A stretch of 64,000 bases of DNA from an uncultured delta proteobacterium (GTDB lineage Bacteria; Myxococcota_A; Polyangia; Haliangiales; Haliangiaceae). The stretch's first letter is position 1. Every line of letters starts with the position of its first letter. The stretch spans positions 320,001 to 384,000 of the forward strand of contig CAWKDB010000002.1 in assembly GCA_963848295.1 (NCBI GenBank), in the 5' to 3' direction. The notes below the pieces were generated by a model. That model saw only the letters and a list, made by a program, of their open reading frames with translations, did not search any database and was not told the origin of the DNA. Made by a program: the position numbers and the translations under genes. Shown here one piece after another: positions 1 through 15,748 of this stretch.

Positions 1-199
1 GCCATTTGGCGAAGCGTTCGTACGCTTCGGCAGCGTGGCGGTCGGTCTCGGGAAGGAGCTCGAGTGGAGCCGCGTGGCTCCAGAATAGCGCGCCGTCGGC
101 GGGGGGGCCATCCCCGCGGGCAACGTCGGTAGCGATCTCGACCAGCCGAGCGCGAGCTCGGTCCGCGAGCTCGCCCACGAGGATCGGTTGCCAGTCCAT
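1..199 (-). CDS. N-terminal fragment of a gene running off the window edge (MDWQPILVGELADRARARLVEIATDVA...); function uncertain, possibly LanC-like
   Basis: ATG at 199 lies 2 nt past the stop of the CoA-transferase B gene and the frame is open to the edge. The LanC-like resemblance is only an impression. Confidence 0.35.
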   Translation of the reverse strand, partial: MDWQPILVGELADRARARLVEIATDVARGDGPPADGALFWSHAAPLELLPETDRHAAEAYERFAKW

Positions 200-201
200 C
201 G

Positions 202-825
202 TCAACTCAGGGCCGCGCCGGTCGCCACCGCCGCCTGCTCGCGGCTGACGCCCGGCGCCAGCTCCACGATGCGGAACCCCTCGCCGGTCGGCTCGAACAC
301 GCCGAGGTCGGTGATGACGAGCGCGACGACGCCCGCCGCAGTCAGCGGATAGGTCGCAGCGCGCCACGAGCTTCGGCGCGCCGTTCTTCGCACGTGCTGC
401 ATCATCGCGATGACGCGCCGGCAGCCGCTCGCGAGATCCATCGCGCCGCCGATGCCCATGACCTTGCCGCCGGGCACCGCCCAGTTCGCGAGGTCACCGT
501 TCGCCGCGACCTGCATCGCGCCGAGGATCGCGAGGTCGACGTGACCGCCGCGGATCATCGCGAACGACGCGGCGGAGTCGAACGTCGAGCCGCCGGGCAA
601 CACCGTCACGGTCTGCTTGCCCGCGTTGATGAGGTTCGGATCTTCGTCGCCCTCGAACGGGAACGGCCCGGTGCCGAGCAAGCCGTTCTCGGAGTGCAAG
701 AACGCGTGGCCGGCCGGCAGGTAGTCGGCGACCTGCGTCGGCAGGCCGATGCCGAGGTTGACGATCGAGCCGGCGGCGATCTCCTTCGCCGCGCGCCGCG
801 CCATCGCTTCGGTGTCCCAGCTCAT
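202..825 (-). CDS. scoB: 3-oxoacid CoA-transferase subunit B (ScoB/PcaJ family)
   Basis: VNLGIGLPT, catalytic SENG, GGHVD, LGAMQV and GGAMDL motifs. An apparent compensating indel pair near 352-392 (alternate frame reads KNGAPKLVARC). Confidence 0.88.
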   Translation of the reverse strand: MSWDTEAMARRAAKEIAAGSIVNLGIGLPTQVADYLPAGHAFLHSENGLLGTGPFPFEGDEDPNLINAGKQTVTVLPGGSTFDSAASFAMIRGGHVDLAILGAMQVAANGDLANWAVPGGKVMGIGGAMDLASGCRRVIAMMQHVRRTARRSSWRAATYPLTAAGVVALVITDLGVFEPTGEGFRIVELAPGVSREQAAVATGAALS

Positions 826-1526
826 CGCTTCCTCACCGTACGAAACTCGAACGCGTTCTCGTGCTCGGGCACGTGGACGACCTTCGCGACATAGATCCCC
901 GCGAGGTGGACGTCATCGGGATCGATCGCGCCCGGCTCGACGAGCTCGTCGCACTCGACCAGCGCGAGCTTCGCGGCGGTCGCCATCACCGGGTTGAAGT
1001 TGCGCGCGGTCCGCCAGAAGCGCAGGTTGCCGAACCGGTCGGCCTTCGCCGCGCGCACGAGCGCGACATCGCCGTGGAGCGCGCGCTCGAGGAGATAGCG
1101 CTTGCCGTCGAGCTCCTTGACCTCTTTGCCCTGCTCGACGACGGTACCGACGCCGGTCGGCGTGTAGAACGCCGGGATGCCCGCGCCCGCGGCGCGCATC
1201 CTCTCGACGAGCGTGCCCTGCGGTACGACCTCGACCTCGACTTCGCCCGAGGCCATCCGCGTGTGCAGATCTTCGTTGCCGCCGATGTAGCTGCAGATGA
1301 CCTTGCGGACGATGCCGGCGCGCAACCAGGTCGCGAGACCCTTGCCGAGGTTGCCGGCGTTGTTCGAGACCAGCGTCAGGTGCTTCACCCCGCGCTCGAC
1401 CATGCCCTTGATCAGCGCTTCGGGGTTGCCCGACAAGCCGAAGCCGCCGACGAGGATCGTCATGCCATCTTGCACGGGCGCGAGCGCCTCGGCGACCGAG
1501 CGCACGACCTTGTCGTGATGGTTCAC
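822..1526 (-). CDS. scoA: 3-oxoacid CoA-transferase subunit A (ScoA/PcaI family)
   Basis: [44 protein letters not shown] and TARNFNP motifs. GTG at 1526 overlaps the upstream stop (GTGA). Confidence 0.9.
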
Positions 1527-2797
1527 GCCGCGGCCCCGAACGCGCGCACCGCGGCGTCGCCGAACGATCGGATGCCGCCGACGAGCTCTTGCTCGGTGAT
1601 GCACAGCGGCGGTGCGAAGATCGCGGTCCCGCGCTTGGCGTCGACATGGAGCGAGAGCTTGCGCTGCGCGAGCTCGCCGGCGAGCACGCCCCACTCGATG
1701 CTCGGCGCCTCGATCTCGAGCGCGGCGAGCAGGCCCTGACCGCGCACGAACGTCACGGCCGTGACCCGCTGCTTGACGGCATCGAGCTCGCGGCGCAGCA
1801 CGGGCCCCAGGCGCTCGGCGTTCTCGAACAGCTTGTCGTCGCGATAGACGTTGAGGGTCTCGACCGCGGCGGCGCACGCGGTCGGATGCGCGTAGTACGT
1901 CAGTCCGCACGCGAGCACGCGCTCGTCGAAGTGCTCGGCGACGCGAGCGCTGACCAGCACCGCGCCGATCGCTTGATAGCCCGAGGCGAGGCCCTTCGCG
2001 ACCGTGATCAGATCGGGCGCCACGTTCCAGTGCTGGAACCCGAACGGCTTGCCGGTCCGGCCGAAGCCGGTGAGCACCTCGTCGGCGACGAGCAGCGCGC
2101 CTTCGCGATCGCACGCGGCACGGACGAGCGGCCAGTACTCCGGCGGCGGCACGAGCACGCCGTTCGCGCCCGGCACCGGCTCGAGGAACACCGCGGCGAT
2201 CGAGTGCGGGCCCTCGAGCTGCATCTGCGCGTCGATGTTCGTCGCGCACTCGCGCGCGCAGGTCGCGAGCTGCTTGCCGAACGGGCAGCGATCGCAGTAG
2301 CAGTCGGCGACATGGACGACGCCCGGGATGCCCGGCTCCATCGCCGCGCGCCGCCAGTCGCCGGTCAGCGACAACGCCCCCATCGACGCGCCGTGATAAC
2401 TGCGATAGCGCGCGATGTTCTTGAGCCGGCCGGTGACCGCGCGCGCGATCTTGAGCGCGTTCTCGTTCGCCTCGGCGCCGCCGAGCGTGAAGAACACCTT
2501 GCCGCGCGCGAAACCGGGGCCGGCCATCGCGAGCAGGCGTTCGGCGAGCTCGACCTTCGCCGGGAACACCGCGTTCGGAGCGGCGAGGCACAGCTCGTCG
2601 GCCTGGCGCTTGATCGCTTCGACGATGCGCTTACAGCCGTGGCCGGCGTTCACCTGGTAGCTGAGCGCGCCGAGATCGAGCCAGCGCTCGCCGCCTTTCG
2701 TCGTGAAGTGCGCGCCGTGACCGCCGGTGAGCTCGAGCGGCTTCGCGCCGTGCTGCGCCGACCACGTGAAGAAGAACGGATAGTCGCGGGTCGTCAT
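1523..2797 (-). CDS. Class III PLP-dependent aminotransferase (omega-amino acid:pyruvate type)
   Basis: [41 protein letters not shown] (catalytic Lys) and LTYYAHP. Confidence 0.9.
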
Positions 2798-2800
2798 GAG

Positions 2801-3922
2801 TCAGAGCTTCCAGCGCACGGGCGAGACGTTGTGGATGAACCCCTGCTGCGCCCACAGCTCGCCCGAGGTCAAGTTCATCGCGATCGCGCCGCAGGTCGCC
2901 GCGCCGTGCGGGTCCTCCGGCGTCGACATGTTCGTGTTGATGCTGCGCGGCCAGCCGTCTTCGGAGCCGAGCCGGCGCCACGCATCGGCGAGATCCGCGA
3001 TCGGCGCGCGCGCGAGGTCGACCTCGAGCCAGTGCATGCGATCGTGCGTCGTGCTCGCGGGCGGGACCTTCGAGCGTGCGGCGACCTCGCGATCGAAGCA
3101 GTGGTTCGTGTGGCAATAGACCTTGAGGTCGCCGTTGAACACCTGCTTGCGCCGCGTTCCCGACGCCTCGATCGCGAACGCCGCGTTGCGGCCGCCGACG
3201 AAGTAGTGATGGCCCGAGCCGATCGGCGCGTGGGCGATCTCGTCGCGCGCTCCGGTCACCGTACGTTCGGCGAGCGCGCGGCGCACGACCGCGGGCCACA
3301 CCACGCCGAGCGTCGCGTCGGTCGAGTACAGGTTGTTGATCGCGATCGCCACGCGCGCGGCATTCATCCCGGCCATCCCGAGGCAGCCGGTCACGGTGAG
3401 CAGGCGCATCGCCGGCGCCTTCGCGGTCTCCGGCACGCCGAGCGTCATGACGTACGGGATCGCGGTCGCGTGCATGTCCCAGGTCTGCGCGAGGATGCGT
3501 CCGCTCGGCGTCTCGGCCCAGATGACACTGCATCCGTCGCCGCCAAGGGAATCCGAGCCCGAGCCCGAGCCCGAGCCCGATGCGTCGTCGTGCGTCTTCG
3601 CCCGCTTCCACTTCTTCTGATCCGGATCCAGATCCCGCAGATCGGTGTAGTGATTCGCGACGACGATCTCTTCGGGCGTCACCGCCGCACCCTCCGCGAT
3701 CCCGCACAGCTCGGCGTGCAAGTCGCGGTCGTAGCTCTCCAGCACCGGCAGGTGCGCCTTCGCCGCCGACAGCACCGCGGCAGCGTCTCCGAACCCGCCG
3801 ACCTTCGTGCACAGGTACACGCGGATCGCGGCGAGCGCCTTGATCTCGCCGCGGAAGCTCTCGCCGTGCAGCTGGCCCCACTCGCGTGGTGACTTGCCGG
3901 CTGGAAGATCGAGCGTCCTCAA
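2801..3922 (-). CDS. Peptidase C45 family Ntn-hydrolase / acyltransferase
   Basis: [10 protein letters not shown]-terminus, ELCGIAEGA, autocleavage site DG/CS, ILAQTWD, GMAGMN and HTNH. TTG start at 3922 overlaps the upstream stop. Confidence 0.8.
3553..3580. repeat. (CCGAGC)4.7 tandem repeat encoding a Ser-Gly run just before the C45 autocleavage site
   Basis: Directly visible in the sequence. Confidence 0.9.
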
Positions 3923-6900
3923 CGTGCGCCGCCTGCGCCGCCGATCGCCTCCGCGGCCTCGGCGATCCGATCGAGCGCGGGAATCACGCCGAGCTTGCCC
4001 GCGGGGAACCGCCGCACCGCGATGCCGCGATCGCCGAGCGCATCCGCGACTTCGTCGGCGCGGTCGCCGGCATCGATCACGCGATACGCGCCGAGCCCGG
4101 CGAACGGCACGCCGAGCCCGGTCAACGCGCGATCGAGCGCCGCGGCGCCGCCCGCGATGTCGAGCCGCCGCGCCGCTCGCGCGTGATGATGCTGCCGGAC
4201 GAGCGACAGCTCGTCGCCATCCCACGTCGACACGAGCGTCAGCGGACCCGGGACGTACCACTTCGCCGAGGTGTGCAGGTAGCCGGTCTGCGCCCCGCCC
4301 CACCACGTCAGCACGTCGGGGACGAGGCCCACGGCGCTCGACAAGAACGGGCCCTTGCCGGAGCGATACGTGTGGGTCGTGGTCTCGACCGCGATCAGCG
4401 GCAGCTCGAGCTCGGTGCGCAGCGCGCCGAGCTCGGCGATGAAGTCGGCGGGTAGCACGTGCCCGGTGCGCTCTTGCACGAGCTCGTACACGAAGCCGAG
4501 CACCCCCGCCGGGCCGCCCGCCTTGCCGACCGCGACGCGCAGCGCTGCGATCGTCGCTTGCGTGCCTGCGATCGCCGGATGCGGCACGCGCGGCCACGCG
4601 AAGTGACCCGGACCACCGCGATGCACCGCCGGATCCGAAAGCGATCGCGTGCTGCCGACGGTGTGCCCGTAGTAGCCACCGTCGAGCCCGATCGCGACGG
4701 CCGCGGTCTTGCGCGTACTGCGGACGAGCCGGAGCGCCTTGTCGATGCTCTCGTCGCGGCTCGACGTCAGGTACATGTGCGGCAGCTCGGGCACGAGCGC
4801 CGACAGCCACTCGATCGCGCGCACCGCGGCGGGTGTCGTGTAGTTCATCAGCGTGAGCTTGTTGACCGCCGGCCCATACAGCGAGCCATCGCGCTCGAGG
4901 CTGCGCAGGCTCGCCGGTCCGTCGGCGAACGGCTTGGTCAGCCCTTGCGCGAGATCGATCGCCGCCGCCGGCTCGCTGCGAGCGACGCGCCGCTTGCGGA
5001 CGTCCTCGGCGACCGCGAGATCCGGTGCGAGTGGTCCGAGCGGAATCCGGTAGTAGATGGCCTGACCCTCCGGGTCCTCGTACTGGCCGGTCAGGATCGA
5101 AACCACGTGCGCGCCGAACACGCGGTTGAGGTGCGTCATCTCCGCGGTGCGGCCGACGCGATTGCGCCCGCTGACGTAGCCATAGCGCGGCGAGCCATCG
5201 GGCCGCTTCGCCGCGGCCGCGTCACGCAACTGGTGCTCCTTGAGCTTGCGGCCGATGCCCGATCCCTGGTGGCTCGGCGCGACCGTGATCGACACCGAGT
5301 ACATCGTGTTGTGCTTGCCGAGCATCGGATCGTCGTCGCATCCTTCGACATCGTCGCTCTGCTCGAGCGGGCCGCCGATCGCGAACGCGACGAGCTGCGG
5401 GGTGCCGGACGGCCCGGGCGCCTCCGCGATCACGAGCGAGCCATCGACCCCTTCGATCGCCGCGCGGATCTCGGCCGGCGGCGTGCGGCGCGCCGGCTCG
5501 TAGACCTGGTACTCGATGTCGAGGATCGCCGGTAAAAAGCTCATCGCCTCCGAGTGCGGGACGCGGCGATACGTGACGTTCGGCGGCGGCGCCGGCGCGG
5601 CGCCGGGCGCCGGCGGGTTCTCCCAGGACGGCGGCTTCTGACCTTCGTGCGCGTCGAGCCACGACAGCGACCGGCGGATCGTCTCGAACAACAGCTCGAT
5701 CTCGCGCGCGAGATACGAATCGCTCAGCCGATAGCGCGCGGTCCGCGAGCCGGCCGCAAACACGACCGCGCCGCGCCAGAACCTTTGGCCGATGAACGCA
5801 TCGAGTTGCGCCGGGGTGGGCAGATCGAACGCGAACGCATAGCCGGCGCCGCGCGGATGCTGGACGAGATGCGGATACGCTCGCGCGAGCTGCGCGAGCC
5901 GCGGCGCGACGAGCTTCTCGAGCCGCTCGGCGTTGTGCCCGGTCGACACCATGTCGGCGTGGATCCGGCCGCGCACCAGCGACGCGGCATGAACACTCGC
6001 CGGCTCCGGATCGGCGAACCGCGACATCACGACGCCGACCTGCGCGCGCTTCGCGAACGTCACCGCGTCGGGATAGTCTTGCTGGCCGCGCGCGGAGAGC
6101 AGCCGGAACTTCGAGTGCCACGCGAACGGCCCGCCGAGCCCGAAGCCGACCTGGACCTCGTCGAACAACAGCGAGGTCTTGTGGTAGCGCGTGAGCAGGC
6201 GCAGCGCGCGAAAGAACCGCTCGGTCGCGTAGCGATCGCCGCCTTCGGATTGCATCGGCTCGACGATCGTCGCGAAGTAGGCGCCGGTCGCGAGCGCGGC
6301 ATCGACCGCGGCGAGCGAGGCGACCTCGGCGGCGAGCAACGCGTCGTCCTTCGCGTCGCCGAATCGCTCGCGGAGATCGGCGATGTCGCCGGTGGCGGCG
6401 GCGGCGTAGTAACCGCTCGGCGCGGACGGCTCGTCGTCAGACGGCGTGTTCCACACCGGGAACGGCGCGAACGTCGCCTCGTAGCCCTCGAGCTCGAACG
6501 CGGCGCGCTTGCTCGGCGAGTGGGTCGCGTGCACCGCGAGCAGCGTGCGGCCGTGGAAGCTGCCGTCGAACGCGAGCATCTTCGTCGCATCCGGCCGTTC
6601 GCAGTTGATCCGGGCGAGCGCGAGCGCCTTCTCGTTGGCCTCGGCGCCGGACGCGACGAACGTGACGTGCGGCAAGCCCGGCACGAGCTGGCGCAGCGCG
6701 TTCGCGTAGTCGATCTCGGCCCAGGTCTCGCCCGCGGCGGTATCGGGGTTCGCGACGAGCGTGTCGCCGAACTCGCCCTCGGTGAACGCGCGCACGACCG
6801 GATCCTCGGCGAAGCCACCGACCACCGTCGCGGTCTGGCTCATCCCGTCGAGCACCGCGAGCGGCTCGCGATCGATCGACACCATCCACGGTCCGGCCGA

Positions 6901-8571
6901 GCGCAGGTGATCGAACACCGGCGGCTTCTTCTCTTTCGGCACGCGATCGCCGGCATAGAGCCGCGCGAGGTACGCCTCGGACTCCGGCAGCTTGCCGCCG
7001 GCCGGGCGATGCAGCGCCATCGGTCGCGGCAGCTCGACGAGCATGCGCGCCGCGTCGGCCGCTTCTTCGCCCGCGTGCTGCGCCTCAAGCCGATCGAGAT
7101 CGACGGGCGGCAGCAACGCGGCGAGCTGCGGGTGCGGCGTCACCGCGCCGAGCACGTTCTCGAGCACCGCGACCGGCGCGACGACGTTGCGATGGGCCCA
7201 CGCCCCTGCCGGGCGATGGTTGCCGCTCTTGCCGAGGCCGCCGAACGGCAGCCGCGGGCTCGCGAGGTTCGTCGAGCGGTTGCGATTCAAGATGCCGCTG
7301 TTCGTCCGCGCGAAGAACTGCTCGAACCGAGGCGTCGACGCGGTGAACACCGCGTTCGCGAACCCGTACGGCGACGCATCGATCACCGCGATCGCTTCGT
7401 CGTCGGTGTCGAACACCTCGACGCACAGATCCGGGCCGAACACCTCGACATCGGTGTAGCCGGCGACGTGGTGGACGCCATCGGGCATGCGATGCAACGA
7501 CGGCGAGTGGTAATAGCCGCCCGGCAACTTGCTGCCGGCGACGATCGCATCGGCGCCCGCCTTCTTCGCGATCTCGAGTGCCGCTTGCAGCTTGTGCAGC
7601 GCGCCGATCGTCGCGACCGGGCCGGCGAACACCGACGGATCCTCGGGATCGCCGAACTTCAAGCCGCGCACGACCTTCGCCAGCGCATCGATGAACCGAT
7701 CGGCGATCTTGCGATGCACGAGCACGCGATCGGTGCCGGTGCAGCGCTGGCCCGCGGACAAGTAGCCGCCGACCGCGACCTCGTGCACCGCCTGGCGCAG
7801 CGCGCAGTCGTCGAGCACGACGCACATGTTCTTGCCGCCCATCTCGAGCGCGACCAGCAGCTCGGGGCGATCGAGCGAGGCTTCGAGGATGCGGCGGCCG
7901 ACCGGCCAGCTGCCGGTGAAGCACAACCCGCGGAGCAGCGGATGAGCGACCATCGCCGCGCCGACCTCGCCCGCGCCGACGACGACGTTGAGCACGCCGG
8001 GCGGCAGCTTCGCGGCGAGCGCCGCCTCAGCGTAGCGCTGGCCGCACAGCGGCGAGATGTCCGACGGCTTCATCACGACCGTGTTCCCGGCGTAGAGCGC
8101 GGGGATCACGTGCGCGTGACACAGGTGGAGCGGGAAGTTGAACGGCCCGATCACGCCGACGACGCCGAGCGCCTGGTAGCGCAACACCTCGCCGGGCGCG
8201 ACCGGACCTGGCTTCAAGTCGCTCGCGATCGCCGCCTTGACCAGGTCGAACCGGTTGAGCAGCGTCTGGATCTCGGTCTTGGCTTCCGCGCGGATCTTGC
8301 CGGTCTCGAGCACGATCGCATCCGCGAGCTCGGTCGCGCGACTCGCGATCGCGGCTTTGAATCGCTCGAGGTGAGCGAACCGTTCGGCGCTGGACAGCGC
8401 GGCCCATGCCGGTTGCGCCGCCGCGGCCGCCGCCGCCGCATCGCTCACCGCGGAGACCGTGTAGCCGGTCTCGAACACCACCGCGCCATCGGCCGCGGGG
8501 TTCTTCGACACGAGCGCGGTTCCAGAGGGCGGGACGAACCCCCCACCGATGAAGTTGCCCTTGGCCTGCAC
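3919..8571 (-). CDS. Multidomain fusion: AstD-like aldehyde dehydrogenase + lysine-6-aminotransferase-like class III domain + GNAT + degenerate second aminotransferase domain
   Basis: [48 protein letters not shown]1: [64 protein letters not shown]2: [21 protein letters not shown]. Probable start GTG 8571. Confidence 0.85.
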
Positions 8572-9075: not shown

Positions 9076-9621
9076 TCACTGGTCCGCCGGTTTCGCGTCC
9101 TCAGCCGGCCTTGGCACCGTTGGGGCTTTCACAAGGTGAATACCCCGGCCCGTGATCGTGGCGCACACGCGATCGGGACCTTTGCCCTCGGTGACGACGT
9201 GCGTAAGCAGGATCGTATCCACCGTGCTTGGAAGACCGCCGTCCGCCGCGGTGGGAAGACCGCTGAGGTCGAGTCGAGAAATCGCGTCGGTCGCGGCCGC
9301 GGCTATTGCTTGGCGCGTAAGCTCGTCCGCCGATAGTTTCGCGAGGTCAGTCATACCCACCCAGTAGGTGGTTGGTGTCAGGCGATTGACGCACGCCTTC
9401 CCGACGCCTGAGTCGAGAAGCTCGAAGTCAAGAGCGCCAACCATCGCGGGCTGATTGCCGGGCTGCATGCTGACGAGCAAACTCGACCCGTCGATCGCCG
9501 CTCGCTCAGGCGCTGCGCAGCCGACGAACGCCAGACAGACAACGGTCCCCTTCACCGTCCGAGCTTCACCCTCGTTGGCACCTAAGGCAACAGCTGGCGC
9601 ACGCAGCTTGACCGCGGTCAT
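9076..9621 (-). CDS. Hypothetical exported protein or lipoprotein (true start may be near 9555)
   Basis: Lipobox-like VCLAFVGC; lies in a visibly less GC-rich stretch next to the transposase. Confidence 0.5.
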   Translation of the reverse strand: MTAVKLRAPAVALGANEGEARTVKGTVVCLAFVGCAAPERAAIDGSSLLVSMQPGNQPAMVGALDFELLDSGVGKACVNRLTPTTYWVGMTDLAKLSADELTRQAIAAAATDAISRLDLSGLPTAADGGLPSTVDTILLTHVVTEGKGPDRVCATITGRGIHLVKAPTVPRPAEDAKPADQ

Positions 9622-9919
9622 GGCGGGCGCGACGCTTGGCGCCTACGCGCCCGACGGGTATCGCGATAGGGATGTTGACGAGTACAACATTCGAATGGCC
9701 CTTCGTGCCCTGCTCGAAGGTAACGCTGGTGCGTTCCTCCCACTGTCAGGGAGTTCCGTGGGCTCGCGGTCGAGCCTGTCAGGAACGTCCGTGGATCAAG
9801 ACGTAAGGGACGTATCAGGTCTGGACCCATGGTGTGCGAGGACGCGCCCGTTGCAGCCAATCATGAACTTACGTATATCTGCTGAATCAATTGAATCGTC
9901 GGTTGCTACGTTCCGAGGC

Positions 9920-10669
9920 GTGAGGTCGTCTTCGCGTAATCGCCAGCTCGAGCTTCCGCGGCTCGATAAGAACCAGCAGCGTCGCGGCGGGAAGCGACGA
10001 GGCGCCGGCCACAAGCCGAAGGGCTTCCGCGCCGGCGTCACGCACGCGAAGCGCGCCGAGCTCGATCCAAGCAAGCCCCTCCACATCACGCTGCGCGTGG
10101 TCGCGGCGGTCGCCGCCTTGCGGTCGGAGAAGGCCTATCGTGCGATTCGCCGCGCGCTGGTCGTCACAGCGTTCAACCAACTCGGGCTGCGGATCTGCCA
10201 CTTCAGCGTCCAGCGGAACCACGTCCACTTGATCTGCGAGGCCGACAACAACGCCGGGCTCACGCGCGGCATGCAGAGCTTCAAGATCTCTACGGCAAAG
10301 CAGCTCAATCGCGAGCTGCGGCGTCGTGGCACCGTGTTCGCCGACCGCTACCATGTCGAGATCCTCGCCACCCCGACGCAAGCGAGCCACGCGATCAGCT
10401 ACGTGCTCAACAACTGGCGCAAGCACGGCGAGCACCGCAACACCGCCGGGCTCTACCGCGGCCGCATCGATCCGTTTTCGAGCGGCGCACAGTTCTACGG
10501 CTGGTCCATGCCGCGCTGGCGCACCAGCCTCTATCCAAGAGGGTACGAACGTGCCGCGATCGCGGCGCCCCTCACATGGCTGCTTGGGGTCGGCTACTTG
10601 CGCGGCAGGCCGATCAGCGTCTTCTCGGTGCCCTCCACGCGAGCCACGCGATTGGTGTCGAAGAGTTGA
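9920..10669 (+). mobile_element. HUH/Y1 tyrosine transposase (IS200/RAYT-like)
   Basis: PLHITLR, HUH motif NHVHLICE, VFADRYH, and catalytic-Tyr helix YVLNNWRKH. GTG 9920 has TACGTT 7 nt upstream. No tnpB nearby. Confidence 0.8.
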
Positions 10670-10843
10670 GACGAACCATGAGCGCGGAGTAGCTCCGTTT
10701 GGTCCTCGGCTCGGACGATGCCGCCCCCAAGCAGTCGGCTTGCACAGTGGTCCAGTAGCGCACGCGCTCGCAAAGCCGGTCCGAGGCATTTGGGGACGCG
10801 CCGCGGCGAGAGTGCAAAAAACTGTGGTAACAAGCGAGCCTAG

Positions 10844-12688
10844 ATGGCCTCGCTGGTGTTCCTTGCAGGTCCGATCGCCGGCCGGCGGTACAGACTCGGC
10901 GAAGGCGAGTACGTGATCGGACGGCGCTCCGACTGCCAGATCTTCGTACCGGACATGCGGGTGTCGCGCCAGCACGCGCGGCTGTGGCGCGACGGCGAGG
11001 GCTGGACGCTCGAGGACCTCGGCTCGAATAACGGCACGTTCATCAACGGCCAGAAGCTGAAGAAGGCGACCGCGATCCGCAACGACGACGAGATCACGAT
11101 CGCGAACAACAAGATCCGGGTCGAGTCGCAGGACTCGTCGGCTGAAGGCCGGTTCCCCGAGGGCAACGTCACGATCGTCGACGTCACCGGGCAATCGCTG
11201 ATCCGGTCGCGCGAGGAGTCCGGCCTGGTCAAGCTGCCGATGGTGTCCTCGGGCTTGCAGAGCCTCGCCGATCAGAAAGCGGTGCGGTTGATCGAGCGCA
11301 AGCTCGATGCGCTGACCCAGATCTTGTCGGCGACCGCGGCGTCTGGTTCCGCGGAGGAGCTGCTGACCAAGCTGGTCGACGCGCTGCTCGAGCTCTATCC
11401 GCAGGCCGACGATGTCGGCGTGCTCGTCGAGGACGAGCGCACCGGCGAGCTTCGGGTTCAAGTCCAGCGCCACCGCCGCGCCCAGACCGGGCCCGACTCC
11501 GGCGGCGACGTCTCGCCGTACGGCGGCGACTTGCGCGTACCGGGCACGATCATCCAACACGTGGTCAGCGATGGCCGCGGCGTGCTGCTCGGCGAAAACG
11601 CCGACGACGAAGAGCCGATCGGCACGCGCATGGGCGCACCGATCATCTACGGCGGCGCGCACTACGGCGTGGTCTACGTCGAGAGCATGACCCAGTCGTT
11701 CCGACAGGAAGACGTCGATCTGCTCCAGACCATCGCGAACCAAGCCGGGTTGGCGATCCATGCCACGCGCGTCGCGGTGCAGCTCGCCCGGCGAGAGCAG
11801 CTCGATCGCGATCTGCGCGTCGCTCGCCAGATCCAGCGCAGCTTGTTGCCGGCGAACGTGCCGCAGGTCGTGGGCCTCGACTTCGCGGTCCACTACGAGC
11901 CCGCGTATCAGATCGGCGGCGACTTCTACGACTTCATCTGGCACGACCCGTCGCACTTGGGTCTCGCGGTCGGCGATGTCGCCGGCAAAGCGATCAGCGC
12001 GGCGCTGTACATGGCGCGGTTGACCTCGGAGCTGCGGTCGCGCGCCGCGATCGCGCGGACGCCCGCGCGACTGCTCCGTCGCGTCAACAGCGAGATCGCG
12101 TCGCTCGGCGACGACGGCATGTTCGCGACGCTCGTCTACCTGATCTACGACCTCGAGAACCGCAGCCTCGTGTTCACGAACGCCGGCCACTGCGTGCCGC
12201 TGTTGCGCCGCGGCGACCGCGTGTTCCCGCTCCAAGCCGAGCGCGCGAGCACCCCGCCGCTCGGGGTGACCGCCGAGCTCGAAGCGGGTGAAGCGCGCGT
12301 CCAGCTCCACTCCGGCGACATGCTGATCATCGTGTCGGATGGCATCATCGAAGCGCGCGATATTCACGGCAAAGAGTACGGGCTGACGCGGCTCTCGCGG
12401 CGGATCCGGACCGCGCGCGGCGCGACCGAAGACGTCATCAAGGCGATCCTGGCGGACATCGACTCGCACTGCGGCGATCAAGCCCAAGGCGACGACATGA
12501 CGATCGTCGCGATGGCGATCGACCAGCGCCGCGCCAAGCGCAAGACCACGACCCTGCCCGGCGTCGTCCCGGCCGAGACCTCCCGACCCGCGCGGCTGTC
12601 GACCGAAGGCGGCACGCCGAACGACACCTCGCGGATGGGCCACGAAGGAATTCACGGGGTTCCACCCGGCCCCGACGAACAAGACTGA
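10844..12688 (+). CDS. FHA-GAF-SpoIIE (PP2C-type) Ser/Thr phosphatase
   Basis: FHA: IGR, VSRQHA, LEDLGSNNGTFING. GAF-like middle. PP2C: GGDFYD, VGDVAGK, NAGH, SDGIIE, DDMT. Confidence 0.9.
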   Translation: MASLVFLAGPIAGRRYRLGEGEYVIGRRSDCQIFVPDMRVSRQHARLWRDGEGWTLEDLGSNNGTFINGQKLKKATAIRNDDEITIANNKIRVESQDSSAEGRFPEGNVTIVDVTGQSLIRSREESGLVKLPMVSSGLQSLADQKAVRLIERKLDALTQILSATAASGSAEELLTKLVDALLELYPQADDVGVLVEDERTGELRVQVQRHRRAQTGPDSGGDVSPYGGDLRVPGTIIQHVVSDGRGVLLGENADDEEPIGTRMGAPIIYGGAHYGVVYVESMTQSFRQEDVDLLQTIANQAGLAIHATRVAVQLARREQLDRDLRVARQIQRSLLPANVPQVVGLDFAVHYEPAYQIGGDFYDFIWHDPSHLGLAVGDVAGKAISAALYMARLTSELRSRAAIARTPARLLRRVNSEIASLGDDGMFATLVYLIYDLENRSLVFTNAGHCVPLLRRGDRVFPLQAERASTPPLGVTAELEAGEARVQLHSGDMLIIVSDGIIEARDIHGKEYGLTRLSRRIRTARGATEDVIKAILADIDSHCGDQAQGDDMTIVAMAIDQRRAKRKTTTLPGVVPAETSRPARLSTEGGTPNDTSRMGHEGIHGVPPGPDEQD

Positions 12689-12784
12689 GCGCCCGTCGCG
12701 GCAAAGTCTCGGCTTTCGGAGGGAGACAACGCTTGCCAAGCCCGCGAGCGCCGTGGCATACAACGCGTCCCCGGAGCTACTGCC

Positions 12785-12958
12785 ATGGCGAAAAAAGGGA
12801 AATCGGGCCGCGAGCTCATCCGTCTGGTGTCGACCGCCGATACCGGCTTCTTCTACACCACGTCGAAGAACCGCAAGCGGACGCCCGACAAGCTCGTGCT
12901 CAAGAAGTACGACCCGGTCGTGCGTCGGCACGTCGAGTTCAAAGAGTCGAAGATCTAG
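12785..12958 (+). CDS. rpmG: 50S ribosomal protein L33, Cys-free form (absent from the ORF track because it is 57 aa)
   Basis: Manual translation: [57 protein letters not shown]. Confidence 0.95.
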
Positions 12959-12967
12959 GAGCTGGCG

Positions 12968-13204
12968 ATGTCGCGCGTTTGCCAAGTCACCGGGAAGAAG
13001 CCGCTCGTCGGCAACAACGTCTCGCACTCGAACCGCCACACGAAGCGCCGGTTCGAGATCAACCTCAAGGACAAGCGGTTCTGGGTCGAAGACGAGAAGC
13101 GCTGGGTCACGATTCGGATCTCGGCGCGCGGTATGCGCCTGATCGACAAGCTCGGCTTGCCCGCGGTGATCGCCGAGATGCGGTCGCGCGGCGAGAAGTT
13201 CTAA
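12968..13204 (+). CDS. rpmB: 50S ribosomal protein L28
   Basis: [36 protein letters not shown] Shine-Dalgarno upstream. Confidence 0.95.
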
Positions 13205-13215
13205 CGCCGCCCGCG

Positions 13216-14511
13216 ATGCGGTTCGCGGCGGCAGCGCTCGCGATCGCCGCGTGTCACTCCCCGGAGCATCCGCGGTCACAAGCCGTCGGGCAGACGCTCG
13301 ACGTCAGCGCCGGCGGAGCCTTGCGCGGCGTCGCAGGCGATCACGGCGGCGCGCGGCTCTTCACGGCGATCGCGGCGCCCGGTCATACGACGGTCGTCGC
13401 CCGCACGAACGGCGCGATCAGCTGGTCGGCCGACGTGCCCGGCGGCGGAGGCCCGATCGCCGCGAGTCACGGGCTCGTCATCGTCACGACCAGCGCCACC
13501 GGCGGGATCTCGATCGCCGGTGTCCCGCGGGTGCTGCGCGGCGATCCGGGCATCGTCGCGATCGCGCTCGACGCCGGCACCGGTGCGATCAAGTGGGTGC
13601 TACCCGTCGATTCTGGCGAGTGGGCGGTCGCGAGCGCGATCGCCGCGACCGGCGACGGCGTCGTGATCGGCGGATCGTTCAGCGGCACGCTGCGCGCCGG
13701 CGCGAAGGTCGTGACGAGCGCGGGCACCGCGGACGGCTTCGTCGTCAAGCTCGGTGCGGGCGGTGCGGTCGATTGGCTCGTCAGGATGGGCGGGCCCGGC
13801 GGCGATGCGATCACCGGTGTCGCGGCGCGCGGCGATCGCATCGCGATCGCAGGAACGTTCGGGATGGACGCCGACCTGTTCGGCCAGCGGCTCGTCCAGA
13901 TCGACGACCGCTCGCCGCTCGCCGACGGCTTCGTCGCCGAGCTCGATGTCGCCGGCGCCTTGAGCTGGGTCAAGACGTTCGGTGGCCACTACGACGAAGC
14001 AGTCGCCGGCGTCGCGATCGACAACAGCGGACGCGTCGCGGTCGCGTCGAGTGCACGCGGCAAGCTCGCGGTCGGCGGCACCGAGCTGTCCGCGCAAGGT
14101 GCCGGCGATGGCCTGGTCGCGTGGTTCGGCAGCGACGGCGCGGTAGGCGGCGCGACGTTGATCGGCGGCGCCGACTTCGATGGCCTGCGCGCGATCTGCG
14201 CACCCGAAGACGTGAGCGGCGTGGTCGTCGGCGGGTTCTTCTCCGGCTCGATCACGCTCGGCGGCCGCAAGCTCGACGCCGCCGGCGGCGATGACGCCTT
14301 CCTCGCCGCGCTCGACAGCGAGGGCGTGGTCACCGCGGTGTGGCCGGTGAGCGGGCCCGGGCGCGAAGAGATCGTCGCGCTCGCGCCACTCGCCGGCGGT
14401 TTCGTCGCGGGTATCGCGCACACCGCCGCCGTCACGATCGATCGCGCCGCCCTGCCCGCACCCGCCGATCCGATGACCGGCGCCGCGATCGCCGTGCGCG
14501 CCGCGCCTTAG
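13216..14511 (+). CDS. Putative lipoprotein with beta-propeller-like repeats
   Basis: LAIAAC lipobox; repeated G.F.G....G ... DGFV/DAFL ... W...GG units. Confidence 0.7.
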   Translation: MRFAAAALAIAACHSPEHPRSQAVGQTLDVSAGGALRGVAGDHGGARLFTAIAAPGHTTVVARTNGAISWSADVPGGGGPIAASHGLVIVTTSATGGISIAGVPRVLRGDPGIVAIALDAGTGAIKWVLPVDSGEWAVASAIAATGDGVVIGGSFSGTLRAGAKVVTSAGTADGFVVKLGAGGAVDWLVRMGGPGGDAITGVAARGDRIAIAGTFGMDADLFGQRLVQIDDRSPLADGFVAELDVAGALSWVKTFGGHYDEAVAGVAIDNSGRVAVASSARGKLAVGGTELSAQGAGDGLVAWFGSDGAVGGATLIGGADFDGLRAICAPEDVSGVVVGGFFSGSITLGGRKLDAAGGDDAFLAALDSEGVVTAVWPVSGPGREEIVALAPLAGGFVAGIAHTAAVTIDRAALPAPADPMTGAAIAVRAAP

Positions 14512-14515
14512 CCCA

Positions 14516-15748
14516 TCACGCTTCGAGCAACATCCGGTCGGGCGCTTCGAGCCGATCCTTGACCGCGACGAGGAACGACACCGCCTCGCGACCGTCGACG
14601 ACGCGGTGGTCGTAGCTCAGCGCCACGTACATCATCGGGCGGACCTTGATCTCGTCGCCGATCACGACCGCGCGCTTGACGATGTTGTGCATGCCGAGGA
14701 TGCCGGTCTGCGGGTAGTTGAGCAGCGGCGTCGACATCATCGAACCGTAGATGCCGCCGTTCGTGATGCTGAACGTCCCGCCGGTGAGATCCGGCAGCGC
14801 CAGCTTCGCGTTGCGCGCGCGGTCCGCGAGCTCCAGGATGCCGGCTTCGATCTCGGCGAACGTGCGCTGGTCGCAATCGCGCAGCACCGGGACGACGAGG
14901 CCCTTCGGCGCCGACACCGCGATGCCGAAATCGTAATGCTTCTTGTAGACGATGCTGCCGGCGACGAGCTCGGCGTTGACGCCGGGGAACAGCTTGCACG
15001 CGGCGACGCAGGCTTTGACGAAGAACGACATGAAGCCGAGCTTGGTGCCGTGGGTCTTCTCGAAGCTGTCTTTGTACCTGGTGCGCAGCTCGATGATCTG
15101 CGTCATGTCGACTTCGTTGAACGTCGTCAGCGACGCCGACTCGTGCTGCGCCTGGACCAGGCGCTCGGCCACGCGCTTGCGCAGCGGCGACATCGGCGCG
15201 ATCTCGTCGCGCGGATCGACTTCGGCGAGGCGAGCCTCCGCGCTCGGTCCGGCCGGTGCGGCGCCGGCGTCGGTGCGCGCCGGCAACGAGCCGTGCTCGC
15301 GAGCGGCGAGACGTTGCGAGGGGGTGAGGCGTAGCAGGGCGTCGCGATCGAGCGACTCGCCGTTGCCGGTGCTCGGTGCGGCGGCGAGGCTGACTGCCGC
15401 CGGGGACGGCTTCGCGGCTGGCGCCGGGGGCGCGGGCTTCGGTACGGTCGGAGCCGCGGCCGGCTTCGGTGGGGCGGGAGCTGCGGCCGGCTTCGTCGCC
15501 GCCGCGCCGGCCTTGCCCGCGTCGACCTGGCCGATCACCTCGCCGACCTTCACGGTCGCGCCGACCGCGGCGCGCTGAGCGCCCATCGCCCCCGCGACCG
15601 GCGACGGCAGCTGCACCGTGATCTTGTCGGTCTCGAGCTCCGCGACCGGCTCGTCGACCGCCACGGCCTCGCCGCTCTGCTTGAGCCAACGTGACACGAC
15701 TGCCTCGACGATCGATTCGCCGAGCGGGGGCACGACCAGATCAGCCAT
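14516..15748 (-). CDS. sucB: Dihydrolipoyllysine succinyltransferase (E2 of 2-oxoglutarate dehydrogenase)
   Basis: Lipoyl domain ELETDK, LTTFNEVDM, KLGFMSFFVKA, GGTFSITNGG and YDHRVVDG. Confidence 0.95.
   Translation of the reverse strand: MADLVVPPLGESIVEAVVSRWLKQSGEAVAVDEPVAELETDKITVQLPSPVAGAMGAQRAAVGATVKVGEVIGQVDAGKAGAAATKPAAAPAPPKPAAAPTVPKPAPPAPAAKPSPAAVSLAAAPSTGNGESLDRDALLRLTPSQRLAAREHGSLPARTDAGAAPAGPSAEARLAEVDPRDEIAPMSPLRKRVAERLVQAQHESASLTTFNEVDMTQIIELRTRYKDSFEKTHGTKLGFMSFFVKACVAACKLFPGVNAELVAGSIVYKKHYDFGIAVSAPKGLVVPVLRDCDQRTFAEIEAGILELADRARNAKLALPDLTGGTFSITNGGIYGSMMSTPLLNYPQTGILGMHNIVKRAVVIGDEIKVRPMMYVALSYDHRVVDGREAVSFLVAVKDRLEAPDRMLLEA

Follow-up and report, generated by a model that had tools for sequence, protein, structure and literature searches.

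Which reactions are carried out by a polypeptide that joins an aldehyde dehydrogenase (ALDH), two class III aminotransferase (AT) domains and a GNAT domain, and on which substrate do they act? The question is raised by positions 1 to 8571 of a 64,000-nt window, the whole stretch of DNA analyzed, from an uncultured delta proteobacterium of the Haliangiaceae (contig CAWKDB010000002.1, positions 320,001 to 384,000). The fusion gene (3919..8571; like the five genes downstream of it, on the minus strand) has a GTG start and encodes 1550 aa in the domain order ALDH-AT1-GNAT-AT2. It is followed by genes for a C45-family hydrolase, a free class III AT and the two subunits, ScoA and ScoB, of a 3-oxoacid CoA-transferase. 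A first-pass annotation, made from the sequence alone, had read this arrangement as an acyl-protected amino acid pathway resembling the arginine succinyltransferase (AST) pathway. We propose that AT1 and AT2 very probably pair within the one chain as a pseudo-dimer that has a single active site, a loop of AT2 completing AT1. For the five-gene operon we propose a pathway that starts from beta-lysine, which a KamA-type aminomutase, in most cases encoded outside the operon, would form from lysine, and that yields succinyl-CoA and acetyl-CoA. To this pathway we give an even chance; the pseudo-dimer is the better supported of the two proposals. That the operon serves some route of beta-lysine is probable.

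The aminotransferase pair

Residue conservation was assessed in an alignment of 79 homologs with 25 to 80% identity. AT1 (5647..6999, approximately aa 525 to 975) is predicted to be an active class III AT. Its pyridoxal 5'-phosphate (PLP) lysine K841 (codon at 6049..6051) and H673, R675, E776, D804, Q807, and R946 are invariant in 79/79 sequences, so that the PLP Lys, the Asp, the Gln, and the substrate arginines of the class are all present. The Ser-Thr-Trp trans loop, whose Thr completes the identical second subunit in a homodimer, is deleted from each of the 13 AT1 rows displayed, whereas the rows of lysine epsilon-aminotransferase (LAT) and of ArgD-type enzymes retain it. In AT2 (3934..4968, approximately aa 1202 to 1546) the losses are complementary. 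The PLP-lysine position is never Lys in the 79 homologs (Gly in 69), the Asp-Glu-Val-Gln and His-Gly-Arg motifs are lost together with the N-terminal segment, and the domain thus lacks both the PLP Lys and the Asp of a class III enzyme. Retained in 79/79 are Asp1453 and Ser1448-Thr1449-Trp1450 (4222..4230), the equivalent of the loop that completes the PLP site of a neighbor, and the Asn preceding this loop is replaced by Ile or Val, also in 79/79. The loop of E. coli AstC is described as entering the neighboring subunit, where its Thr binds the PLP phosphate (PMC3590144). The first-pass annotation had taken both AT domains to be enzymes; judged by its residues, AT2 is predicted to be a catalytically dead, structural half.

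The AlphaFold2 model of aa 521 to 1550 (pLDDT 94.4, pTM 0.94) places AT1 closest to the LAT of Mycobacterium tuberculosis (Z 38.7 to 39.0), with AstC and ArgD within about one unit (37.8). This enzyme (Rv3290c, PDB 2CIN) is the best match in both sequence and fold (Z 38.7, rmsd 1.9, 398 residues aligned) and shares with AT1 identical PLP residues and the Glu/Arg switch. However, it is a homodimer with two sites, whereas in the chain described here the active half has no trans loop and the loop is carried by the half predicted to be dead. When AT1 and AT2 were folded as separate chains with PLP, the complex score was 0.95, compared with 0.38 for the best of three controls; the mark set for this score is attained by 116/157 solved pairs and 2/215 mismatched pairs. 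Contacts agreed to at least 97% between runs with a partner pLDDT of at least 93, and the predicted interface takes in the AT1 phosphate cup, the AT1 lysine, and the AT2 loop. The complex score may stem from likeness to solved AT homodimers; the complementary residue loss is evidence independent of it. The likeness to lysine 6-aminotransferase seen in the first-pass annotation was borne out, in that AT1 sits in the LAT branch and the best NCBIfam match of the AT part is lysine 6-transaminase (TIGR03251, 116 bits, below the equivalog cut-off of 520.8). A substitution of AstC Tyr18 by Lys548 was considered and dropped, as the conserved Glu-Lys-Lys (547 to 549) sits one to three residues past that position.

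A sister family of about 750 aa, comprising an AT with its own loop intact and a degenerate GNAT domain, occurs in Acidobacteriota and Gemmatimonadota. It groups with AT1 at a modest support of 83 and may resemble the ancestor of the fusion; AT2 forms a long branch in the AT tree. Proteins of 730 to 750 aa that consist of a LAT-like AT and a GNAT-like domain without the CoA loop were also seen at L043 (~9788 to 12037), L045, L046, and L050. This family extends to Pseudomonadota, and in L046 its copy is followed by two genes for ALDHs and one resembling saccharopine dehydrogenase. AT heteromultimers are described as little known in a source that uses another class numbering (PMC9309667).

Distribution of the fusion and the operon

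The possibility that the fusion is an assembly artefact, which the first-pass annotation had named as a risk, was ruled out, since 111 of the 120 homologs listed are 1480 to 1620 aa long and align with it end to end. The read-derived contigs on the locus are short and span neither the domain junctions nor a frameshift in scoB. The AT-GNAT-AT part had a strong match in 21 of 24 same-genus genomes, the unpublished genome G010 among them, two of these matches being partial or split over contigs; none was found in the 16 same-order or same-class genomes of the same draw. Relatives that bear names, at approximately 80% identity, belong to the Kofleriaceae. A search of 50%-identity representatives returned 255 proteins at E ≤1e-30, many of 1000 to 1100 aa without the ALDH. 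In an even draw of 301 genomes across the phylum, 34 contained the GNAT-AT2 part. We refer to these as carriers and to the other 267 as non-carriers; five further carriers were included in some counts. A search for related loci yielded at least 69, about 22 of them true family members.

The operon recurs in Myxococcota and in Bacteriovoracaceae (Bdellovibrionota), and the gene order fusion-C45-AT-scoA-scoB is identical in Kofleriaceae and Bacteriovoracaceae, that is, in two phyla. Fusion of the ALDH is seen in Kofleriaceae and in several other lineages, and ten loci (L141-143, L147-150, L237, L239, L240) have it as a gene of its own immediately upstream. The ALDH is not found at the operon in Bacteriovoracaceae, in which the closest ALDH comes after astA. 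Neighbors were counted in 38 loci that extend 5 kb or more downstream, after L144 and L153 had been left out as copies of L030 and L028. The most constant neighbor is scoA, lying downstream in 32, followed by the free AT in 27 (24 at a 38% identity cut, with L036, L037, and L059 added), scoB in 25, and C45 in 23. The neighborhood with C45 and scoAB on which the first-pass annotation relied is therefore conserved. Upstream of the operon, four Bacteriovoracaceae loci have a D-Ala-D-Ala ligase gene and family f44 has coaBC/UDG; these were rejected as partners because they reflect lineage-specific synteny. A thiolase pattern and an M20 query, both too narrow, found no match around the operon loci.

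The system is conserved and apparently uncharacterised. A literature search, which subscription papers largely lay outside, returned nothing on the fusion architecture, on aminotransferases of Kofleriaceae, on a pseudo-dimer AT, or on a route from beta-lysine to 3-oxoadipate, in agreement with the first-pass annotation, to which no characterised case of the architecture was known. Judged by titles or the beginnings of abstracts, none of the four papers found on 3-aminoadipate concerns its catabolism; the remaining papers dealt with AST, lysine fermentation, osmolytes, and heterodimers of an unrelated kind.

Co-occurrence with lysine aminomutases

The combination of a probable beta-amino acid transaminase and a 3-oxoacid CoA-transferase led us to suspect a beta-amino acid as the substrate. 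Beta-lysine corresponds to ornithine with one more carbon on the carboxyl side; AST chemistry applied to it would therefore give 3-aminoadipate and then 3-oxoadipate. Having the chain length of lysine and the amine spacing of ornithine, it also fits an AT1 derived from LAT that is joined to an ALDH derived from AstD. The prediction that carriers have KamA and lack KamD was recorded before it was tested. A KamA-type gene is present in 109 of the 301 genomes, 32/34 carriers compared with 77/267 non-carriers, and all 12 carriers without AstA have it. KamD was found in one of the 39 carriers searched (one of 32 among the KamA-positive carriers) as opposed to 56 of the 77 KamA-positive non-carriers, one of these by a fragment match only.

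In family f12, KamA occurs in 3 of 18 genomes, exactly the three carriers, and in family f18 it occurs in one of three, again the carrier; in family f26, one carrier lacks KamD, which 15 of its 17 KamA-positive relatives have. In G182, kamA ends 6 nt upstream of the fusion gene, with scoAB downstream of the latter. Three Bacteriovoracaceae carriers have a KamA of this clade at 48 to 50% identity. We suggest that beta-lysine is more likely to be the substrate than lysine or ornithine. In L249, from a genome with neither KamD nor this operon, a KamA-type gene sits after two ATP-grasp ligase genes.

Proposed pathway

In the scheme that follows, every substrate and reaction is one that we infer. 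The GNAT domain, or an unlinked AstA where one is present, would acylate the 3-amino group of beta-lysine, preventing ring closure (step 1). AT1, completed by the Ser-Thr-Trp loop of AT2, would then move the epsilon-amino group to 2-oxoglutarate (step 2), and the AstD-like domain would oxidize the semialdehyde to N-acyl-3-aminoadipate (step 3). C45 would strip the acyl group to give 3-aminoadipate (step 4), the free AT would convert this to 3-oxoadipate (step 5), ScoAB would form 3-oxoadipyl-CoA (step 6), and a PcaF-like thiolase encoded elsewhere would cleave it (step 7). The proposed steps match the gene order, and the three fused activities become consecutive. The fused domains may channel intermediates, as the first-pass annotation supposed; the ALDH is unfused in many lineages. 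For the last step, genome G000 offers a PcaF-like thiolase whose gene stands alone (566 bits, cut-off 597), the next thiolase reaching 280. A beta-keto acid cleavage enzyme of the Kce family occurs in three of five carriers and, in G000, is not near the operon.

The general logic of the first-pass annotation, to acylate, transaminate, oxidize, and deacylate, is supported. Its substrates, alpha-lysine, ornithine, or a diamine, are disfavored because they leave the free AT and the 3-oxoacid CoA-transferase without a step, and because the co-occurrence favors beta-lysine. The CoA-transferase, which had been taken for a recycler of the acyl group, is more likely to be a pathway step that activates 3-oxoadipate if beta-lysine is the substrate.

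The individual enzymes

The ALDH domain (7183..8520, aa 18 to 463) has conserved catalytic Glu243 and Cys277. The domain scan called for in the first-pass annotation recovered Aldedh at 18 to 463 (E 8e-109), two Aminotran_3 stretches, and, weakly and under the cut-off, a GNAT domain at 1058 to 1118; in the downstream genes it found AAT/C45, Aminotran_3, and CoA_trans twice. Against AstD models the ALDH scored 311.5 bits (TIGR03240, cut-off 579.3) and 327 bits (PRK09457, cut-off 514), both below the cut-off, and 210 bits against a succinate-semialdehyde dehydrogenase (SSADH)-like model. A quick tree placed it in an AstD-like clade of 59 rows that includes canonical AstD and astA-linked ALDHs (SH-aLRT 100), within which the operon ALDHs form their own subclade of 32 rows (support 100). 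The likeness to AstD noted in the first-pass annotation thus holds, AstD also being the best NCBIfam match.

Acylation by the GNAT domain (5032..5580, approximately aa 998 to 1180), although plausible, is the weakest step of the proposal. Its fold is that of RimI and the N-alpha-acetyltransferases (RimI Z 19.1, rmsd 2.3, 150 residues aligned; tied with NatA/Ard1). The CoA-binding loop is retained, with G1107 in 78/79 homologs, and the domain has conserved Tyr-Glu-x-x-Arg and Arg-Asn-Arg motifs, with invariant Tyr, Glu, Arg, and Asn residues of its own; for these reasons it is likely to be a working acyltransferase. It had no NCBIfam match at 1e-5, including the beta-lysine N6-acetyltransferase model (AblB, TIGR03827).

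A different use of beta-lysine has to be weighed here. The work of Barker on Pseudomonas and Brevibacterium reportedly established a route through N6-acetyl-beta-lysine. In an operon of this kind, the GNAT domain would acetylate N6, the free AT would produce the 3-keto acid, ScoAB and a thiolase would cleave it, C45 would deacetylate, and AT1 and the ALDH would dispose of 4-aminobutyrate (GABA). This route predicts the same KamA/KamD pattern and uses all five genes, and the AT1 branch also includes eukaryotic GABA ATs. However, the fused domains would then perform the first and the last two steps instead of three consecutive ones, and the gene order would not be followed. The ALDH is also more AstD-like than SSADH-like, and the GNAT domain, lacking the AblB match, reaches no more than 25% identity, over 103 aa, to one beta-lysine N-acetyltransferase protein. 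We consider this route improbable.

The C45 protein (2801..3922, 373 aa), an autoproteolytic acyltransferase/hydrolase, scored 132 bits (cut-off 85). It has an intact Gly130-Cys131 cleavage site, and Cys131 aligns with the nucleophile of 2X1D. We predict it to be the deacylase. The free class III AT (1523..2797) is PRK06062-like, and its closest solved relative is taurine:2-oxoglutarate aminotransferase (6JIX, 289 bits; next 237). Because taurine is a beta-amino sulfonate, this relationship suggests, by analogy, that the enzyme acts on a beta-amino acid, and we predict it to be a beta-amino acid transaminase. ScoA (822..1526) and ScoB (202..825) match and pass their NCBIfam models (TIGR02429, 270 bits versus 128; TIGR02428, 269 versus 244), and their closest solved relatives are succinyl-CoA:3-ketoacid transferases. 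The scoB gene contains a compensated double frameshift near 353 to 391, affecting approximately 13 codons, which may be an assembly error.

The free AT also resembles omega-amino acid transaminases, and this bears on a route for diamines. The Puu pathway is the model for such a route, in which the GNAT domain would acylate putrescine or cadaverine, the fusion would oxidize the other end, C45 would free GABA or 5-aminovalerate, and the free AT would finish the degradation. The gene order is followed here too, and G000 encodes an agmatinase-like ureohydrolase. Nevertheless, a diamine accounts neither for the KamA linkage nor for a 3-oxoacid CoA-transferase as the most constant neighbor, and we regard this route as very unlikely.

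Points against beta-lysine and a variant of the AST pathway

Several observations weigh against the proposed pathway. C45 is missing from 15 of the 38 loci and the free AT from 11, and steps 4 and 5 are therefore not always linked to the operon. ScoAB cannot be distinguished from ordinary acetoacetate CoA-transferases. The KamA-type protein of G000 (G000:C10:3815765) passes its family cut-off (225 bits versus 199) and falls below the lysine 2,3-aminomutase equivalog TIGR03820 (254 versus 525), so that its own substrate is a matter of argument; we argue for lysine on the basis of the co-occurrence with KamD and of L251, in which a member of the clade precedes the adjoining beta-lysine acetyltransferase gene ablB. 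Two carriers, G159 and G097, have no KamA match. The former genome has a completeness of 89%, and KamA is present in its congener; the latter has an ALDH-GNAT fusion from which both AT domains are deleted (L234:9733-11790). G044, a Bdellovibrionota carrier, has only a 35% match to the KamA clade, although the matching protein reaches 500 bits against the equivalog. Of the 77 KamA-positive non-carriers, 21 (e.g., G115, G120, G273, and G258) have neither KamD nor the operon. Carriers include kin and are not independent, so the Fisher p-values of the co-occurrence are overstated, although the pattern persists inside families f12, f18, and f26. Finally, AstA is enriched in carriers (22/34 versus 100/267 non-carriers), which a role in ornithine degradation would also explain, and astA adjoins the closest ALDH in Bdellovibrionota.

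The last two points would suit a variant of the AST pathway acting on ornithine or alpha-lysine, in which AstA or the GNAT domain N2-succinylates the substrate, the fusion takes the place of AstC and AstD and C45 that of AstE, with ScoAB recycling succinate. In its favor, the AstD-like clade that contains the ALDH is well supported and its remaining members are encoded in astA operons, and the GNAT fold is nearest to N-alpha-acetyltransferases. G000 has astA, and astB was not found in it (85% complete); AstB-less succinylation of ornithine has been described for the AstO branch of Acinetobacter (PMC12375414). The ast-linked AT of other Myxococcota, present in 32/301 genomes, coincides with carriers in only two. 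However, this variant offers no step for the beta/omega-aminotransferase and does not predict the presence of KamA, the absence of KamD, or the kamA-fusion junction in G182. The operon ALDHs form a clade separate from the astA-linked ones, and 12 of the 34 carriers have no AstA. An arginase proper, AstB, and a pentein hydrolase were likewise not found in the 85% complete G000 as a supply of ornithine. The variant is therefore unlikely, and we prefer the degradation of beta-lysine, in which AstA, where present, may share or take over the acylation.

AstA occurs in 122 of the 301 genomes, and in none of the loci read was its gene part of the operon; AstB occurs in 31, including 5 of the 34 carriers, and in none of the five further carriers. 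As AstA is far commoner than AstB, most myxobacterial AstA substrates are unexplained. A lone astA lies at G000:C10:2301881-2302894 (L134:9881-10906). We also observed an astB-less ast operon in 14 Myxococcota genomes (L199-L212; e.g., G161, G101, and G171). In 14/14 it combines astA with genes for an AstD-like ALDH and for a hydrolase of the pentein (amidinotransferase-like) type, with an unusual class III AT upstream in nine and an ArgE-like M20 deacylase upstream in five; the pentein is likely to replace AstB there.

Comparison with known systems

Like the AST pathway (astCADBE) and its AstO branch, the operon would combine acyl protection, omega-transamination, AstD-type oxidation, and deacylation, with an ALDH of the AstD-like clade. 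It differs in that no astB was found in it, the deacylase is C45 instead of AstE, the acyltransferase is a RimI-like GNAT domain instead of AstA, and the AT is a single chain from the LAT branch, to which a beta-transaminase, a 3-oxoacid CoA-transferase, and the link with KamA are added. The lysine fermentation of clostridia (KamA, KamDE, Kdd, Kce, and Kal) also starts from beta-lysine made by KamA. However, carriers are almost always without KamD, and the operon apparently stands in for the branch of this fermentation that depends on B12.

The operon yodT-yodS-yodR-yodQ-yodP-kamA of Bacillus subtilis combines KamA with a GNAT, a class III AT, CoA-transferase subunits A and B, and a deacylase. 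It shares these elements with the operon described here, as does the route of Barker, but it is not known to have an AstD-like ALDH or a second, LAT-like AT. Conversely, the GNAT domain of the fusion is not of the AblB/YodP type, and the deacylase of the operon described here belongs to C45 and not to M20. The physiological role of B. subtilis KamA is stated to be open, and YodT to be uncharacterised, in the account given in PMC6522883. The last two proposed steps are those at the end of the 3-oxoadipate pathway (PcaIJ and PcaF), and the pcaI/scoA and pcaJ/scoB models are passed, 3-oxoadipate being a putative substrate; the feed proposed here is an amino acid and not an aromatic compound. Pairs of class III ATs were also seen in Pseudomonadota (L047:3932-8556, L051:970-4775, and L040:9764-14458), some with 300-aa N-terminal extensions. 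They adjoin histone-deacetylase-family and ALDH genes and possibly belong to another acyl-protected amine pathway.

Gene layout and flanking genes

The six minus-strand open reading frames of the first-pass annotation were confirmed in position, and so were their tight junctions; from the fusion to the sixth gene, these are a 4-nt overlap, a 3-nt gap, two 4-nt overlaps, and a 2-nt gap. The truncated sixth gene, however, does not belong to the system. It is the 5' part (1..199) of a LanC-like gene of 374 aa in full that runs past the window edge, and we rejected it as a member because its G+C content at third codon positions is 0.75, compared with 0.90 to 0.93 in the five operon genes, and because it had no match in any of 47 operon loci. 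In the extended locus (L001:15075-16199), it is a stand-alone gene whose codon use is atypical, and the Ser/Thr kinase-WD40 gene that comes after it (L001 ~9700 to 15050) is also disrupted by frameshifts. A further copy lies at G000:C10:2867000. On the other side of the operon, an open reading frame at 9455 to 10669, recognized by eye from its translation as resembling a transposase of the REP-associated type, separates it from an FHA-GAF-SpoIIE gene; in other Kofleriaceae, that gene is the immediate neighbor of the operon.

Implications

Whatever its substrate, the AT1/AT2 pair would be a clean natural example of how complementary loss can convert a homodimer into one asymmetric chain, and it could serve as a scaffold on which transaminases are engineered site by site. 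If the proposed pathway is correct, 3-aminoadipate would be a natural intermediate, and lysine would be connected by a short route to the C6 dicarboxylate precursor 3-oxoadipate. The pathway would also provide a fate for beta-lysine in the many bacteria in which lysine 2,3-aminomutase is present and the 5,6-aminomutase is absent. We tentatively suggest that predatory and soil bacteria could use a B12-independent lysine catabolism based on a single-chain, one-site AT, with acylation, transamination, and oxidation on one polypeptide, which would add a route of lysine degradation to the protein-eating Myxococcota and Bdellovibrionota.

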